Shown in pieces: positions 8,450 through 44,707 of a DNA stretch of 64,000 bases (position 1 is the first letter of the stretch; every line of letters starts with the position of its first letter). This DNA is from an uncultured Clostridia bacterium. GTDB lineage: Bacteria > Bacillota > Clostridia > Christensenellales > UBA3700. The notes under the pieces were generated by a model that was not told where the DNA came from, searched no databases, and was given only the letters and a program-made list of their open reading frames with translations. A program made the position numbers and the translations under genes. The DNA is taken from assembly GCA_947646415.1 (NCBI GenBank), contig CANSGN010000004.1:3743-67742 (forward strand), given 5' to 3'.

Positions 8450-10798
8450 TTAATTCATTTTAGAATCTTTATTTATCTGCTCTCCGCCTAGACAATAAAT
8501 AACATACGCGCCTGTTGAACTATCCCAATCATACTCTCTGCTGATTTCCAACCATTCGGATTTTGTACCAACAAACTCAATACGTGTAAGACTTGTACAA
8601 TTTGCAAATGCACCCATCGATATACGAGTAACGCTGTTGTATATTTTGATAGACTTTAAGTTTGTGCATCCGTTAAATGCATCTGTGCCTATTTCTACCA
8701 CACCGTTTGTAAGTTCCATACTTTCCAAACTAGAGCATCCATAAAATAATCTTTCTCCAATAACGGATATGGAATTTGGCAAAGTAGCCGTTCTTAAACT
8801 CAAGCACCCTGCAAACACGCCGTTACCTAATTCAACAATGCTGTTAGGCAATTTTAACACACCAGCACCCGATTGAATGTCACTGCTTGACAAAACAATA
8901 CTAGTAATTTTGCTGCAGCCTGCAAATGCTCTGTCGCCAATACTTATTACACTATTTTCAGGAATTATTATATTTTCAAGGTTTTCGCAGTTATTAAAAG
9001 CATAGCTGTTGATAATTTTTGTTTTTTCATTAATTTGTATATCGGTCAAACCAACTTGTTTAGCTTTTACAAAAACCAAATATTGGTTATTGTTGTTACC
9101 TAAATACAAACCATTATCAAAAATATTATAATTCAAATTATCACAACCAAAAAATGCGTTCAAACCAATCTTGCTTATACTATTTGGCAAAGTAATGTTT
9201 GTCAAACTCTTGCAGTTGTAAAAAGCGTTTGCAGGGATTTCATTGCCGTTAGTAACAGTCACATTTTCAAGCATATACTTAGGCAAAACCTCTATTACAT
9301 TGGCACTAACAGTAGCATCGGTAATAGGACAGTTATTAAATACTCCACTTCCAATACAAGTCAAGTTGTTTGATAAATTAACATAACTAACATTTATACA
9401 ATCTTCAAACGCACATTGTCCCAATGTTGTTACTGTGTTAGGAAGTTCTACTTTTGTAAGCAACTTGCAACCTGAAAAAGCAAAATCGCCTATACTATTT
9501 AATCCGTCATTAAACTTTATGTCGGTTAAATATTCACAGCCGTTAAAAGCATTCATACCAATAATTCTTATAGTTTTTGACAAAATAACTGTTTCAAGAA
9601 AATTACTGCCACTAAAAGCAAAATCTTCAATTTCCGTACCGCCGGTTATTTCCACCTGAACCAAATTTGCTTTATCTACATAGGATATTGCGGTAGCAGG
9701 CATTTTTACTTCACTTATAGGACAATTTTCAAAAGCATCATTGCCTATCGTTGTTACACCATTTGATATTTCCAAATTGGAAAGTTCCACACAATTATAA
9801 AAAGCTTCGGCACCGATTGTAGTAATGCTGTTAGGCAATATCAAATTGTTAAGTTTGCTACAACTTGTAAAAGCGTTGTTATTAATTTGAATTACGCTAT
9901 CGGGAATTGTTATATTTACAAGTTCCACACAATCGGAAAAAGCTCTTTCCCCTATAGTCCTTACACTATCCGGCAAATTGATTTGCTTTAAGCTTGAGCA
10001 ATATCTAAATGCCCTGTTAGCAATTTCCACAACACTGTTAGGCAACGATATATTAGTTAATTTGTCACAACCGTAAAACGCATACGGACTTATTATTGAC
10101 CCGCCCAATATTTTAACATCTGTCAATGCGGGCGAAATATCTTGCGCATTTTGAGAATAGTTGCTTGCTCCAAAAATATAGCCGAAATGAGAATTTGCAT
10201 CTGTACCGTTAGCCGCGAAATTTTTATTTGCTCCTACAAAAGGTATTACCATTTTTGATATTTTATTACAGTTTTCAAAAACACCGTATCCGATTTTTTC
10301 CACTTTATCGGAAATAGTCACATTTTCCAAGTTTGTACAACCGCGAAAAGCATAGTCATCTATATATTTAACACTATCGCTAACCGTTACGCTTTTTACA
10401 AAATCACAATTTTTAAAGGCTTCACGCTCAACACCTATTACGGGAGTACTGTTGTGTATGCTAGGAATTATTACCTCACTTACAGTCTTGTTTAAACCGG
10501 TCACTATATATGCCTTTTCGTCACTGTCATAAGTGTAGTCAAATTCGTTTTTCATATATTTACATATACTGCAAACATCATTACCATCCAAAAATTTATG
10601 CGCCTCTGCTTCCTCTACTTTATCGCAAATATCGCAAGCCAACCAATGTTTTGAACTATCCTTTGAATAACTCATGGAACAAATGTGTTCAGGCTCTTTT
10701 GTAATACATGCAGACAAGGAAATTAAAGATAAAACTACTAATATACTGCAAGCCAATACTATTGCAATATTAAAAAGTAACATCTTTGATTTTTTCAT
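8450..10798 (-). CDS. BspA-like leucine-rich-repeat surface lipoprotein
   Basis: 782 aa. Signal peptide ending in lipobox LSAC, then a Cys-rich stretch (CxxC pairs), then more than 20 tandem ~23-aa LRR units of the BspA/LRR_5 type (IPxSVxxIGxxAFxxCxxL). Confidence 0.85.
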   Translation of the reverse strand: MKKSKMLLFNIAIVLACSILVVLSLISLSACITKEPEHICSMSYSKDSSKHWLACDICDKVEEAEAHKFLDGNDVCSICKYMKNEFDYTYDSDEKAYIVTGLNKTVSEVIIPSIHNSTPVIGVEREAFKNCDFVKSVTVSDSVKYIDDYAFRGCTNLENVTISDKVEKIGYGVFENCNKISKMVIPFVGANKNFAANGTDANSHFGYIFGASNYSQNAQDISPALTDVKILGGSIISPYAFYGCDKLTNISLPNSVVEIANRAFRYCSSLKQINLPDSVRTIGERAFSDCVELVNITIPDSVIQINNNAFTSCSKLNNLILPNSITTIGAEAFYNCVELSNLEISNGVTTIGNDAFENCPISEVKMPATAISYVDKANLVQVEITGGTEIEDFAFSGSNFLETVILSKTIRIIGMNAFNGCEYLTDIKFNDGLNSIGDFAFSGCKLLTKVELPNTVTTLGQCAFEDCINVSYVNLSNNLTCIGSGVFNNCPITDATVSANVIEVLPKYMLENVTVTNGNEIPANAFYNCKSLTNITLPNSISKIGLNAFFGCDNLNYNIFDNGLYLGNNNNQYLVFVKAKQVGLTDIQINEKTKIINSYAFNNCENLENIIIPENSVISIGDRAFAGCSKITSIVLSSSDIQSGAGVLKLPNSIVELGNGVFAGCLSLRTATLPNSISVIGERLFYGCSSLESMELTNGVVEIGTDAFNGCTNLKSIKIYNSVTRISMGAFANCTSLTRIEFVGTKSEWLEISREYDWDSSTGAYVIYCLGGEQINKDSKMN

Positions 10799-10932: not shown

Positions 10933-10961
10933 ATTATACAAAATACCTACACATTTGTCAA
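10933..10961 (-). promoter_or_regulatory. Consensus sigma-A promoter for the LRR lipoprotein gene, abutting palindrome S1
   Basis: Minus strand reads TTGACA (10961..10956), a 17-nt spacer, then TATAAT (10938..10933). Confidence 0.5.
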
Positions 10962-10969
10962 CCAAAAAA

Positions 10970-10999
10970 GTGTCAGAAATGGTATACTTTTTCTGACAC
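10970..10999. repeat. Palindrome S1 (candidate serine-recombinase crossover/binding site)
   Basis: GTGTCAGAAATGGTATACTTTTTCTGACAC. One of 4 copies in the window. On the minus strand it is followed by TTTTTT. Confidence 0.7.
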
Positions 11000-11105
11000 A
11001 AAAATACATTGGAAAAAATTGTCTTAAATTGTATAATTATGTTATTTGCATAAAATTTATACACAAATTTATAACTAACAATAATAAAAGTGTGCAAAAA
11101 GCTAA

Positions 11106-11135
11106 GTGTCAGAAAAAGTATACATTTCCTGACAC
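11106..11135. repeat. Palindrome S2 (candidate serine-recombinase crossover/binding site)
   Basis: GTGTCAGAAAAAGTATACATTTCCTGACAC, 136 bp from S1. On the plus strand it is followed by TTTTT. Confidence 0.7.
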
Positions 11136-11280
11136 TTTTTACACTTGTTGTAAAATACAAAATAAATGTTTTGCAATTTTCGGATAAAATGCTAAAATAT
11201 AAAATATGTGTCGTTAAATTTGAGAAAACTCAAATTTAAAAAAAGCTATCGCTTTTTCTTGATAAATCAAGCCGACATAG

Positions 11281-11349
11281 TTTGAATTAACAATCGCCGA
11301 TGTCAAATGCCACTTCGTGTCGCTTGACTACTGCTTCCGATATTATAAA
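11281..11349 (+). repeat. 69-bp direct repeat copy A upstream of the recombinase gene
   Basis: TTTGAATTAACAATCGCCGATGTCAAATGCCACTTCGTGTCGCTTGACTACTGCTTCCGATATTATAAA. About 84 percent identical to copy B by my count. Contains TGTCAA..17 nt..TTGACT. Confidence 0.6.
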
Positions 11350-11428
11350 CTATAGAAGGTAAATTTTAATTAGCATTAAAATTTTATATTGCTGTCGCAA
11401 TATAGCTTGTTATCACAAGTACTTCTAA

Positions 11429-11497
11429 TTTGAATTAACAATCGCTGATGTCAAATATCCCTATGGGCTGCTTGACTACAGCTTCCGATAATATAAA
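11429..11497 (+). repeat. 69-bp direct repeat copy B immediately upstream of the recombinase RBS
   Basis: TTTGAATTAACAATCGCTGATGTCAAATATCCCTATGGGCTGCTTGACTACAGCTTCCGATAATATAAA, 148 bp downstream of copy A. TTGACT-16nt-TAAAAT is a promoter-like arrangement. Confidence 0.6.
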
Positions 11498-11521
11498 ATA
11501 TGTACAATTAGGAGAAAAAAT

Positions 11522-12133
11522 ATGAAGATTTATGCTTATGCAAGAGTATCAACCAGCGACCAAAATCTTTCAAGACAATTAGATGCTTTTAAAAAATTCG
11601 GTGTACGCAAAACCAATATTTACACCGATAAAAAAAGCGGAAAAGATTTTGAAAGAATCAACTATAAAAAACTTATAGATAAGCTTAGTAAAGGCGATTT
11701 ATTGGTTATAAAATCTATTGACCGATTAGGCAGAAATTACACTGCCATAATTGAGGAATGGCGAAATATTACACATATAATCGGCGCGGATATTTGCGTT
11801 TTGGATATGCCCTTACTTGACACACGTTCAAAATACGACTCGCTTACAAGAAAATTAATATCAGATATAGTACTGCAAGTTTTGTCTTTTGTTGCGGAAA
11901 ACGAACGCGTAAACATAAGAGAGAGACAAAAAGAAGGTATTGCTGCAGCTATGAGACGAGGCGTACAATTCGGAAGACCGCGAAGGCTTTACGACGACGA
12001 TTTTATTAATACCATACAAAAATTCAAAAATAACGAAATAACTACTCATCAAGCGGCCACTCATCTTTCGGTAAACAGAACAAGTCTTTATTTTCATTTA
12101 GATAATTTAACAAAATTAGGTTTTATTTATTAA
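11522..12133 (+). CDS. Small serine recombinase (resolvase/invertase family)
   Basis: 203 aa. Catalytic N-terminus MKIYAYARVSTSDQNLSRQ (Ser10), SIDRLGRN, E-helix ENERVNIRERQKEGIAAAMRRGVQFGRP, C-terminal HTH. RBS AGGAG. No adjacent transposase or phage genes. Confidence 0.9.
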   Translation: MKIYAYARVSTSDQNLSRQLDAFKKFGVRKTNIYTDKKSGKDFERINYKKLIDKLSKGDLLVIKSIDRLGRNYTAIIEEWRNITHIIGADICVLDMPLLDTRSKYDSLTRKLISDIVLQVLSFVAENERVNIRERQKEGIAAAMRRGVQFGRPRRLYDDDFINTIQKFKNNEITTHQAATHLSVNRTSLYFHLDNLTKLGFIY

Positions 12134-43534: not shown

Positions 43535-44332
43535 TTACACATTTTCCAAGGCATCCCTCAAATATTGCGGTATACTAATTGGATCAGACCCTAGCATATA
43601 AATAAATTTACCCTCTCTATCTTCGTCACCATATATAAATGTACAAATCAAATCATTTCCTACAATCTTGATTGTAAAATCTTCAAAATCACTACCTTTA
43701 ATACCATGATATATTCCATCGTCTTTCTTTTCAAAAAGCAAATCAAGGTCATTTTCGCCGAATATCATTAAATCATATATATTTATAATATCTTTAGGTG
43801 CGGAAACTTCTGGTAGCATTTCTATATAAAAATTGAGATAATCGCAAATATCATCGATACTTTCCAACTTTAAAATCTCCCAACGACTCAAATCTGCACT
43901 ATCAATAGGACCATAAAAATAGTTTGCCTTATTCTTTTCTGTAATTTCTAAGTATTTTACAGTTTCTAGATTACTAAACATACAAATATTTCCATGAATT
44001 GTGATTTTAATATCGCTATAAGCGGGTTGATAAAATGATTTTGACGAACTAGCTTTCCATACATTCATATATTCCTTTATAGTAGCATTCGGGCTTATAA
44101 TGTTTTCCTCATTATTGCCACCATCGTTTCCGCCATTTTCAATGTCACTATGATTTCCGCCATTTTCGGTATTCCCACCTTGGTTATTTCCTCCACCGAT
44201 AATTTCTTCACTATCATTGCCATTGTTTCCGCTGTTGTTGCCACCTACAGTTCCATCACAAGCAACAAGTGCCATACATGCTATTATCGCAATAACAATA
44301 ATTGCAACAATCAAAAAAACTTTTTTCTTCAT
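43535..44332 (-). CDS. Hypothetical surface lipoprotein with Gly/Asn-rich linker
   Basis: 265 aa. Signal peptide with lipobox LVACDG, a ~60-aa GGNN-rich low-complexity linker, then a ~170-aa domain of unknown family. RBS AAGGAG. Confidence 0.6.
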   Translation of the reverse strand: MKKKVFLIVAIIVIAIIACMALVACDGTVGGNNSGNNGNDSEEIIGGGNNQGGNTENGGNHSDIENGGNDGGNNEENIISPNATIKEYMNVWKASSSKSFYQPAYSDIKITIHGNICMFSNLETVKYLEITEKNKANYFYGPIDSADLSRWEILKLESIDDICDYLNFYIEMLPEVSAPKDIINIYDLMIFGENDLDLLFEKKDDGIYHGIKGSDFEDFTIKIVGNDLICTFIYGDEDREGKFIYMLGSDPISIPQYLRDALENV

Positions 44333-44402
44333 AAAAACTCCTTTTTATCCAATTAGTATTTATTGATAAAATTTCAAATTTAAACGGTCATTATGCATTT
44401 AT

Positions 44403-44432
44403 CTGTCAGAAAAGGTATACTTTTTCTGACAG
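44403..44432. repeat. Palindrome S3 (candidate serine-recombinase crossover/binding site)
   Basis: CTGTCAGAAAAGGTATACTTTTTCTGACAG, 70 bp upstream of the 43535..44332 start codon. Confidence 0.7.
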
Positions 44433-44440
44433 TTAATCAG

Positions 44441-44469
44441 TTGACATAAAAATTTATTTGTTGTACAAT
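44441..44469 (+). promoter_or_regulatory. Near-consensus sigma-A promoter inside the S3-S4 cassette, pointing away from the lipoprotein gene
   Basis: TTGACA (44441..44446), 17-nt spacer, TACAAT (44464..44469). Confidence 0.45.
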
Positions 44470-44538
44470 AAATATATTATAAAAGGATAAAATTTTAAAA
44501 AATATAACCTTTATTTATACAATTTACACAAAATCAAA

Positions 44539-44568
44539 GTGTCAGAAAAAGTATACTTTTTTTGACAC
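44539..44568. repeat. Palindrome S4 (candidate serine-recombinase crossover/binding site)
   Basis: GTGTCAGAAAAAGTATACTTTTTTTGACAC, 136 bp from S3. On the plus strand it is followed by TTTTT. Confidence 0.7.
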
Positions 44569-44707
44569 TTTTTGCACAATATGAAAAATATCTATATAAC
44601 AAATGCTCGTAATTTATTATTACAGTACATTAACAAGCAAATCATTGTTTCATAAAAGTACAAAAAGATATGCAAAGCATACCTTTTTGTTTAAAAAATT
44701 TTAAATT

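Follow-up and report, generated by a model that had tools for sequence, protein, structure and literature searches.

The question raised by positions 10970 to 11135 of a 64,000-nucleotide stretch of contig CANSGN010000004.1 (assembly GCA_947646415.1; the whole stretch is hereafter called the window), which comes from an uncultured Clostridia bacterium, is whether two palindromes lying between the gene of a leucine-rich repeat (LRR) surface lipoprotein and that of a small serine recombinase are the ends of a segment of DNA that can be turned round in place, or whether they serve some other purpose. An earlier note, made from the sequence of the window alone, had put them forward as a recombinase-controlled switch for the LRR gene, the recombinase gene or both. 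Our comparison with public genomes and metagenomes indicates, with a probability that we would set at about 85%, that the two palindromes (S1 and S2) and the cassette between them constitute an inverton, that is, a promoter-bearing segment flipped by conservative site-specific recombination whose crossover lies at the GTATAC centre of sites of 28 base pairs (bp). The module is part of a family that occurs in many copies with phased sites, is tied to the 5' ends of surface-protein genes and has apparently not been described so far. The elements on which the argument is built are the following:

10970 to 10999: proposed recombination site S1, sequence GTGTCAGAAATGGTATACTTTTTCTGACAC, with a 28-bp core at 10971-10998 that forms an imperfect palindrome around GTATAC; TGTCAGAAATGGTA makes up the outer (left) half, and the inner half agrees with the consensus.
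11000 to 11105: proposed invertible cassette, 106 bp (108 bp if counted between the 28-bp cores).
11009 to 11037, plus strand: cassette promoter of the sigma-70 type, TTGGAA-17-TATAAT, scoring 10/12 in the promoter scan and aimed in the window at S2 and the recombinase gene.
11106 to 11135: proposed recombination site S2, sequence GTGTCAGAAAAAGTATACATTTCCTGACAC, with a 28-bp core at 11107-11134; its consensus inner half reads TGTCAGAAAAAGTA, its outer one TACATTTCCTGACA.
8450 to 10798, minus strand: LRR lipoprotein gene of the BspA type, 782 amino acids, Pfam LRR_5 (E 1e-136), with an N-terminal lipobox (...LSAC).
11522 to 12133, plus strand: serine recombinase gene, 203 amino acids, presumed invertase, with its start codon 386 nucleotides (nt) from S2.

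The distance from S1 to S2 is 136 bp start to start, with 106 bp in between, and re-reading of the window returned exactly the coordinates, sequences and distance that had been reported for the two sites. A search with the pattern TGTCAGAAANNGTATACNNTTTCTGACA, allowing up to three mismatches, rendered four matches in the window against 0.00 expected from 100 shuffles, and S1 and S2 also form, as a pair, a 35-nt inverted repeat with 91% complementarity. The LRR gene, the small serine recombinase with its YARVSTSDQ motif and the 386-nt gap were likewise confirmed by Pfam matches and coordinates, and the promoter scan recovered both the plus-strand promoter of the cassette and the promoter of the LRR gene. 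The minus-strand cassette promoter that the earlier note had read as TTGCAC-17-TTATAA (11097-11069) did not hold up: it is absent from the list produced by the scan, its first hexamer scores 3/6 by our own count, and it is not conserved as a promoter across the family.

The evidence that the cassette turns in place comes from assembled public contigs. L161, a Logan contig of an independent run, shares its LRR protein with the window at 100% identity; its flanks and both palindromes are identical to those of the window base for base, and its cassette matches at 108 of 108 positions when flipped and at 68 when left unflipped. A second case is provided by a mouse-gut genome bin (L046) and a metagenome contig (L064), which are 97-99% identical across about 6 kb and whose cassettes are 100% identical if one of them is reverse-complemented and 56% identical otherwise. 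In the contigs covering the whole module, the promoter is directed at the recombinase gene in seven (the window, L064, L153, L154, L155, L162 and L165) and at the LRR gene in two (L046 and L161). The invertible switch that had been proposed is in this respect borne out, since the cassette is reverse-complemented between identical flanks in L161 as compared with the window, L162 and L165, and in L046 as compared with L064. The variant outer halves of the sites (TGTCAGAAATGGTA and TACATTTCCTGACA) keep to the flanks in both states and the consensus inner halves travel with the cassette, and therefore the point of exchange lies at or near the GTATAC centre. A segment flanked by inverted repeats is thus present in both orientations between unchanged flanks, which is what defines an inverton.

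Flipped alleles of this kind could also arise as artefacts of assembly, or from a rare RecA-dependent inversion between the 35-bp inverted repeats, which are short; the palindromes confuse de Bruijn graphs, and many contigs break there. Contigs ending exactly at the sites (L002, L007, L019, L030, L037, L063 and L156, the last two of them at S2) would be expected from mixed orientations, yet repeats could also produce them, so that they support inversion weakly. Artefact and RecA-dependent exchange are nevertheless very improbable: the two flipped assemblies, the L046 bin and the Logan contig L161, are independent, were obtained with different pipelines from different samples and have exact junctions, and a flipped junction requires reads across site and cassette. 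A dedicated system is favoured by features described below: the conservation of the sites, their phased spacing, the many copies of the family and the occurrence of different sites beside the recombinase homologues. As regards assembly itself, Logan short-k contigs (L144, L147-L151, L157-L160 and L163) systematically end inside the palindromes or inside a 148-bp repeat upstream of the recombinase gene, and these palindromes and the repeat fragment assemblies of the organism.

The 203-residue protein encoded next to the module matches the Resolvase family (PF00239, E 1.7e-28) over residues 3-148, and its N-terminus, MKIYAYARVSTSDQ, has close by the catalytic-serine motif YARVSTSDQ, which is of the YxRVSTxxQ type. 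The closest solved structures are those of Sin (2e-25) and of the gamma-delta and Tn3 resolvases (about 5e-22), the match to Gin being weaker (7e-13 and 1.3e-12), and residues 1-194 align with chain residues 1-180 of full-length Tn3 resolvase. In the last 57 residues the Pfam helix-turn-helix matches are all sub-threshold, the best having an E of 0.008. With the NCBIfam model of Mpi (NF009949) the protein scores 51.7 bits against a cut-off of 272, which places it outside that family. Its clade comprises 7779 proteins at E <= 1e-40, which bear generic names only.

An orthologue of the recombinase gene adjoins the module in L046, L064 and every other contig spanning both, and L044, a rabbit-gut bin, has a homologue of 55% identity at 133 bp from a module whose sites are spaced 105 bp. 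Moreover, in at least 11 metagenome loci homologues of 52-60% identity have as neighbours palindrome pairs of different 28-bp sequence built to the same plan (outer recognition bases, A-tract and GTNNAC centre), with spacings of 105, 114-115, 137 and 217-218 bp. The pairs located about 20-85 bp behind the homologue gene (e.g. TTTACAGAAATGTGTACATTTTTGTAAA) include:

L087, 1325 to 1466: palindrome pair, then a ribosome-binding site and a gene.
L095, 3606 to 3770: palindrome pair, then a ribosome-binding site and a gene.
L117, 1004 to 1168: palindrome pair with a site that has TTATCAAA-type outer bases, then a ribosome-binding site and a gene.
L132, 2255 to 2397: palindrome pair.
L079 and L085, 3617 to 3862: apparently nested or adjacent switches.

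In the pairs of L087, L095, L117 and L132/L136 the central dinucleotides are asymmetric and inverted between partners (GT/AC, CT/AG), which is the arrangement that the chemistry of serine invertases needs for inversion (for core pairing, see PMC4513852).

The extent of the family was assessed by a scan for TGTCAG-N5-GTATAC-N5-YTGACA, with one genome per species. It rendered 62 loci, nearly all from uncultured gut bins (labels Christensenella, Christensenellaceae or Clostridia), where many loci occur in a single bin; by our count the number of matching loci per related genome bin is at least 9-14, and the window itself has two modules. When mismatches were allowed, 40 site pairs were found within the 62 loci, with spacings that cluster at 83-84, 93-95, 105, 113, 123-127 and 134-137 bp. 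The means of these classes (83.7, 94, 105, 113, 125.2 and 135.5 bp) correspond to 10.42 bp x n, with n = 8-13 and residuals of at most 1.6 bp, a periodicity equalled in 263 of 20000 random sets of six spacings, in a test whose data are six classes, not 42 independent points, since many copies share descent. The spacing classes fall on whole helical turns, and therefore the paired sites tend towards the same face of the helix.

This phasing is also what would be expected of a looped operator pair, in which a regulator bound to both in-phase sites would repress the enclosed promoter without any recombination, as in a repressosome of the GalR type; the earlier note had remarked that 136 bp, about 13 turns, would suit such an arrangement. 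Apart from the integral turns, the positions are appropriate: we calculate that the centre of the promoter-proximal site falls about 60 bp upstream of the predicted transcription start and that the other site is downstream of it, and the arrangement of the gal operators OE and OI resembles the one deduced here. Helical phasing has been upheld, so that the geometry of looping or of synapsis does matter, but a pure operator model does not predict a physical inversion of the cassette between identical flanks; the promoter, moreover, is turned to one flank or the other in different family members, and we consider such a model quite improbable. Looping by the recombinase may add a layer of regulation on top of inversion.

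In the AT-rich members of the family the layout is constant. All 25 of 25 modules have a site, 9-10 nt and TTGACA-17-TATAAT, followed by a leader with TTTATAAC-N7-TTTATAAA, a run ending in AAAG and the second site. The outer flank on one side is conserved, begins with (C/G)TTTTT..ACA..TG-TAAAAT and is so placed that palindrome and T-run together are terminator-like; that on the other side is devoid of a T-run and leads over 20-230 nt to a ribosome-binding site and a gene. The genes linked to modules encode mostly lipoproteins (lipoboxes LVAC, LVGC, LSSC and LTAC), including several LRR proteins of the BspA type, as well as one family without known domain and one N6/N4 DNA methylase; such neighbours are typical targets of phase variation. 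In most of the 25 AT-rich modules the promoter faces the T-run flank (OFF geometry). In L017 and L032 the T-run flank is behind the promoter and a lipoprotein gene lies 47-60 nt beyond the site (ON geometry). The palindromes themselves differ between the two sides, with a mean of 1.5 mismatches in gene-side sites versus 0.32 in T-run-side sites, and, judging from this difference, the poorer gene-side palindromes would weaken the hairpin that an ON transcript has to cross.

Several members depart from this layout or add to it. The T-run flank, in the window at 11129-11156 and 44562-44589, has a promoter-like CTGACA-N16-TG-TAAAAT the -35 hexamer of which coincides with the end of the site; this arrangement recurs in most family members, usually without a downstream gene. 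In L001 (positions 1-2303) a gene for a 675-residue N6/N4 DNA methylase starts 42 nt from an OFF-oriented module, and its product is a candidate phase-variable methyltransferase (phasevarion). L021 (5266-5529) has three sites in series, spaced 123 and 113 bp, an arrangement suggestive of two neighbouring cassettes that have the middle site in common. Solo sites were observed at L022 (4532-4559) and L059 (4948-4975), one perfect and one with a single mismatch and neither with a partner within 260 bp; they lie between a flank of the T-run type and a gene, encoding a zinc-ribbon protein and a lipoprotein, respectively, and may be scars of cassette deletion, which the symmetric AT core would permit. 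In GC-richer Clostridia bins (L016, L031, L045, L047/L040, L062 and L018) the spacing is 83-84 bp and a fixed TTGACA-17-TATAAT is located outside the pair; after this promoter come a site with stem extension and T-run, a promoterless cassette of 55-57 bp, the second site and a lipoprotein gene. Flipping of these cassettes might toggle termination. In some of them (L045, L062) a T-run would be retained in either orientation, contrary to the idea of an invertible T-tract.

A family with many copies of uniform size, in which the ends and a motif in one flank are conserved, could have been spread through the genome as a miniature mobile element with terminal palindromes, similar to a miniature inverted-repeat transposable element. 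The interiors, however, show little conservation from copy to copy, module lengths change by increments of about 10.4 bp, and the modules keep to the 5' ends of particular gene families; inspection by eye, with no systematic search, revealed no target-site duplications, and the inversion in place would be left unexplained. The palindrome pattern had 0 matches in 2.9 million viral contigs, which speaks against such an element too. We regard this explanation as extremely improbable. A phage or otherwise mobile origin, which was also considered, was rejected on the absence of the palindrome from those 2.9 million viral contigs.

Inversion of the cassette would re-aim its promoter at the other exit; the elements just outside S1 and S2 and within the leader are the following:

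10933 to 10961, minus strand: fixed promoter of the LRR gene, TTGACA-17-TATAAT, scoring 12/12 in the promoter scan and unchanged in the flipped allele.
10964 to 10969, minus strand: A-run behind S1 (TTTTTT on the minus strand), where a hairpin of -12.3 kcal/mol is followed by UUUUUU, terminator-like for leftward transcripts.
11068 to 11075, plus strand: conserved cassette motif TTTATAAC, first half of the family consensus TTTATAAC-N7-TTTATAAA, which spans 11068-11086 in the window.
11136 to 11140, plus strand: T-run behind S2 (TTTTT), where the fold is the S2 hairpin and then UUUUU, terminator-like for rightward transcripts.

The T-runs outside S1 on the minus strand and S2 on the plus strand, TTTTTT and TTTTT, are as the earlier note had them, and a T-run on the S1 (gene) side is atypical for the family, in which the gene side is normally without one. 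The terminator pattern scan made no call for S2 (plus), for S1 (minus) or for S2b (plus; see below), though each consists of a hairpin and a U-run. The promoter of the LRR gene has its -35 hexamer 8-9 nt from S1, roughly the geometry that cassette promoters have with respect to their own site. The left flank (10933-10969) resembles the promoter end of a former cassette that has lost its far site and is locked ON, an observation that is speculative.

A conserved promoter with a hairpin and T-run about 95 nt later could equally have been read as a small-RNA gene, with S2 as its intrinsic terminator and S1 as the terminator of the divergent neighbour, and some conservation within the cassette (TTTATAAC...TTTATAAA) would fit in with it. 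The sites do look like terminator hairpins where a T-run is present, so that this part of the alternative offered by the earlier note stands. A stand-alone small-RNA gene is, on the other hand, very unlikely: an Rfam scan of the whole window at the gathering threshold gave two tRNAs and nothing else, the alignment fold of 20 cassette transcripts consists of the site hairpin only, with 0 covarying pairs, and the cassette is poorly conserved between copies outside short motifs. Inversion, helical phasing and the ON copies leading into genes would all be unexplained by it. An OFF-state transcript is probably made, most simply as a by-product. For TTTATAAC-N7-TTTATAAA neither RNA pairing nor covariation was detected in the family alignment fold; it could be a site for a DNA-bending accessory protein, or an element of the 5' untranslated region.

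The window has a second palindrome pair (44404-44431 and 44540-44567), also 136 bp apart, which the earlier note did not include:

43535 to 44332, minus strand: lipoprotein gene, 265 amino acids, lipobox LVAC, 71 nt from S1b; presumed target of the switch.
44404 to 44431: site S1b, on the gene side, sequence TGTCAGAAAAGGTATACTTTTTCTGACA, with no T-run on its outer side.
44432 to 44539: second cassette, 108 bp, with promoter TTGACA-17-TACAAT at 44441-44469 on the plus strand (11/12 in the scan).
44540 to 44573, plus strand: S2b (44540-44567) followed by C and TTTTT, a 16-bp hairpin that is terminator-like for the OFF transcript.

A 106-nt stretch with the S2b hairpin folds at -20.1 kcal/mol (z -4.9). 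The two modules of the window are built alike, each being located just upstream of a minus-strand lipoprotein gene, with the promoter 9-10 nt from S1 (or S1b) and pointing away and with TTTTT behind S2 (or S2b), and the sequences of their cassettes diverge outside the promoter hexamers and short motifs. The promoter of the second module is aimed away from the lipoprotein gene (OFF geometry), as it is in L143 and L146, and no flipped allele was found in the three spanning contigs (L143, L146 and the window). The promoter scan showed no promoter-like site belonging to the 265-residue lipoprotein gene itself, and paralogues of this lipoprotein are encoded directly downstream of the ON-oriented modules of L017 and L032. 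With its OFF geometry and no promoter detected for the lipoprotein gene itself, the copy at 44404-44567 fits fully the pattern proposed for a typical switch, in the OFF state. A Logan contig of run SRR10799536 (L152, 1-240) has the gene-side flank and outer half-site of window positions 44332-44431 with a different cassette that has its own TTGACA-17-TATAAT; either cassettes have been exchanged between two loci or the contig is a chimera of k=31 assembly joined at the common 28-bp site, and it was not used as evidence.

Upstream of the recombinase gene, the first locus contains in addition the following repeat:

11278 to 11353 and 11426 to 11501, plus strand: two copies of a 76-nt unit with a period of 148 bp.

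Each unit holds a promoter-like TTGACT-16-TAAA(A/C)T, and the unit is present as a single copy in L063, L064 and L156, a pattern pointing to a strain-variable tandem duplication of the promoter region of the recombinase gene. The neighbours are housekeeping genes (galK/galT-like genes and those for NAD synthase, HPr kinase, a HAD hydrolase and uvrC), and there is no transposon or plasmid context at the first module.

The way in which a typical member would operate can be outlined from these features. A dimer of the recombinase would sit on each 28-bp palindrome, with the C-terminal helix-turn-helix contacting the outer TGTCAG, the A-tract placed in the minor groove and the catalytic domains positioned above the central AT. 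Two such dimers would synapse over a tight loop, which would be feasible only with the sites in helical phase, and cutting at the central AT followed by a 180-degree rotation would leave the cassette inverted; the same recombinase would act in trans on all copies of the module. In the ON state the promoter would read through an imperfect site without T-run into the surface lipoprotein gene, and in the OFF state it would be aimed at a perfect palindrome with T-run that would function as an intrinsic terminator.

Several observations weigh against this reading of the locus as an inverton. At 10970-11135 the T-runs at both exits, together with the 12/12 promoter of the LRR gene, preclude the assignment of a clear ON/OFF output; the switch originally envisaged is supported as regards inversion and not as regards control of the LRR gene. 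For these two reasons, the output of this copy is probably either modulatory, through leaky read-through to the recombinase gene (window state) or to the LRR gene (L161 state), or vestigial. A symmetric AT core would permit deletion as well, and the bias towards inversion is left without explanation. Orthologous flipped alleles are available for one family locus only, that at 10970-11135, and the ON state is represented by two family loci only. In L065 and L066, from two related species and with an 85%-identical recombinase, there is no module within 3 kb: the order galT-rec-nadE-hprK is syntenic, with neither the LRR gene nor palindromes within that distance, and therefore the adjacency of recombinase and site is not universal. 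The recombinase is thus encoded by a conserved chromosomal gene that is not obliged to adjoin a site, as is expected of an enzyme acting in trans. Finally, an orthologue is unconfirmed in the module-rich bins MGBC100798 and MGBC121002, the homologues P0009, P0023 and P0045 being from other assemblies.

Promoter inversion is best characterised in Bacteroides (Mpi), in enterobacteria (Hin, FimB/E) and in Clostridioides difficile (RecV). Mpi uses simple inverted repeats with a length of about 19-25 bp, which in Bacteroides bound segments of about 170-230 bp. In Bacteroides fragilis, Mpi brings about promoter inversion at 7-13 capsular polysaccharide loci (PMC10403206). The modules described here share with the Mpi invertons the use of many short promoter segments in surface variation and of one small serine recombinase, which here too would act in trans. 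They differ in that the recombinase fails the Mpi family model and is nearer to Sin and the gamma-delta resolvase, in that each site is a full 28-bp palindrome with a symmetric AT centre, and in that the segments, of 56-108 bp, are helically phased; moreover, they have promoters of the sigma-70 type, occur in uncultured Clostridia and have lipoproteins and LRR proteins as targets.

With Hin/hix, Gin, Cin and Pin the modules have in common inversion by a serine recombinase at imperfectly palindromic sites in which an A-tract lies between the outer bases and the centre. The hix half-site is TTATCAAAAACC, to be compared with TGTCAGAAAAAGTA in the module, and the hix core is asymmetric (AA/TT). 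Hin inverts about 1 kb between 26-bp sites and requires a remote Fis-bound enhancer and supercoiled DNA (PMC3798978, PMC4513852), unlike the module, with its segment of 106 bp, its 28-bp sites with a symmetric AT centre and a recombinase that matches Gin less well than it does the resolvases. It is unlikely that an enhancer of the Hin type, of about 60 bp (PMC3798978), could share 106 bp with a promoter. The conserved motif TTTATAAC-N7-TTTATAAA could be the site of an accessory protein. The gamma-delta/Tn3 and Sin resolvases provide the best sequence matches of the recombinase, and the module sites resemble site I of res, which has 28 bp, outer bases TGTC...GACA and a crossover at the central AT. 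Resolvases, however, carry out deletion at directly repeated res sites with accessory sites II and III, in contrast to the module, which consists of two palindromes similar to site I and has an inversion product; no extra half-sites that might be accessory sites were found near the modules, and by pattern search there are four sites in total in the 64 kb.

Among switches of C. difficile, segments are about 150-200 bp long, and that of cwpV works through orientation-dependent formation of a terminator, which parallels the logic of site plus T-run proposed for the modules. RecV is a tyrosine recombinase, and its repeats are of about 21 bp and non-palindromic. The flagellar switch of this organism is also a short invertible segment upstream of surface-structure genes (PMC12282940), so that the modules resemble the flagellar and cwpV switches in placing short invertible segments upstream of surface genes in Clostridia, and differ from the RecV switches in being a multi-copy family with phased spacing. 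Invertons are known in Clostridia generally, some of them linked to tyrosine recombinases (PMC11892184). The literature that was searched yielded no paper on the site of the module, on the clade of the recombinase or on invertons of Christensenellales.

It is possible, though we would give the proposal as a whole clearly less than an even chance, that the modules represent a distinct class of mini-invertons in gut Clostridia. Such a class would combine four traits, to which this tentative estimate applies jointly: a Sin/resolvase-like recombinase with no Hin-type enhancer and with site centres 84-136 bp apart; a preference for inversion over deletion that would stem not from core asymmetry but from a protein-DNA loop locked in helical phase, the core being a symmetric AT; a 28-bp site that would double as an RNA hairpin, terminating only with a T-run behind it; and, in the GC-richer relatives, a promoterless cassette of 55 bp that may toggle termination itself.

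The consensus of the sites provides a handle with which to search metagenome bins for phase-variable genes and flags positions at which assemblies break, and compact orthogonal pairs of recombinase and site are of possible use in synthetic biology. For serine invertases, the very short segments with lengths on whole helical turns, the fully palindromic sites similar to res site I with a symmetric core, and the apparent reuse of the sites as orientation-dependent terminator hairpins are unusual. The existence of a large, generically annotated clade of recombinases, many of whose members are found beside 28-bp palindrome pairs of their own, implies that the class may be widespread and unannotated. 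With respect to the organisms themselves, the inversion of promoters as a means of surface variation would be extended by these modules to uncultured, Christensenella-labelled Clostridia of the mouse gut.

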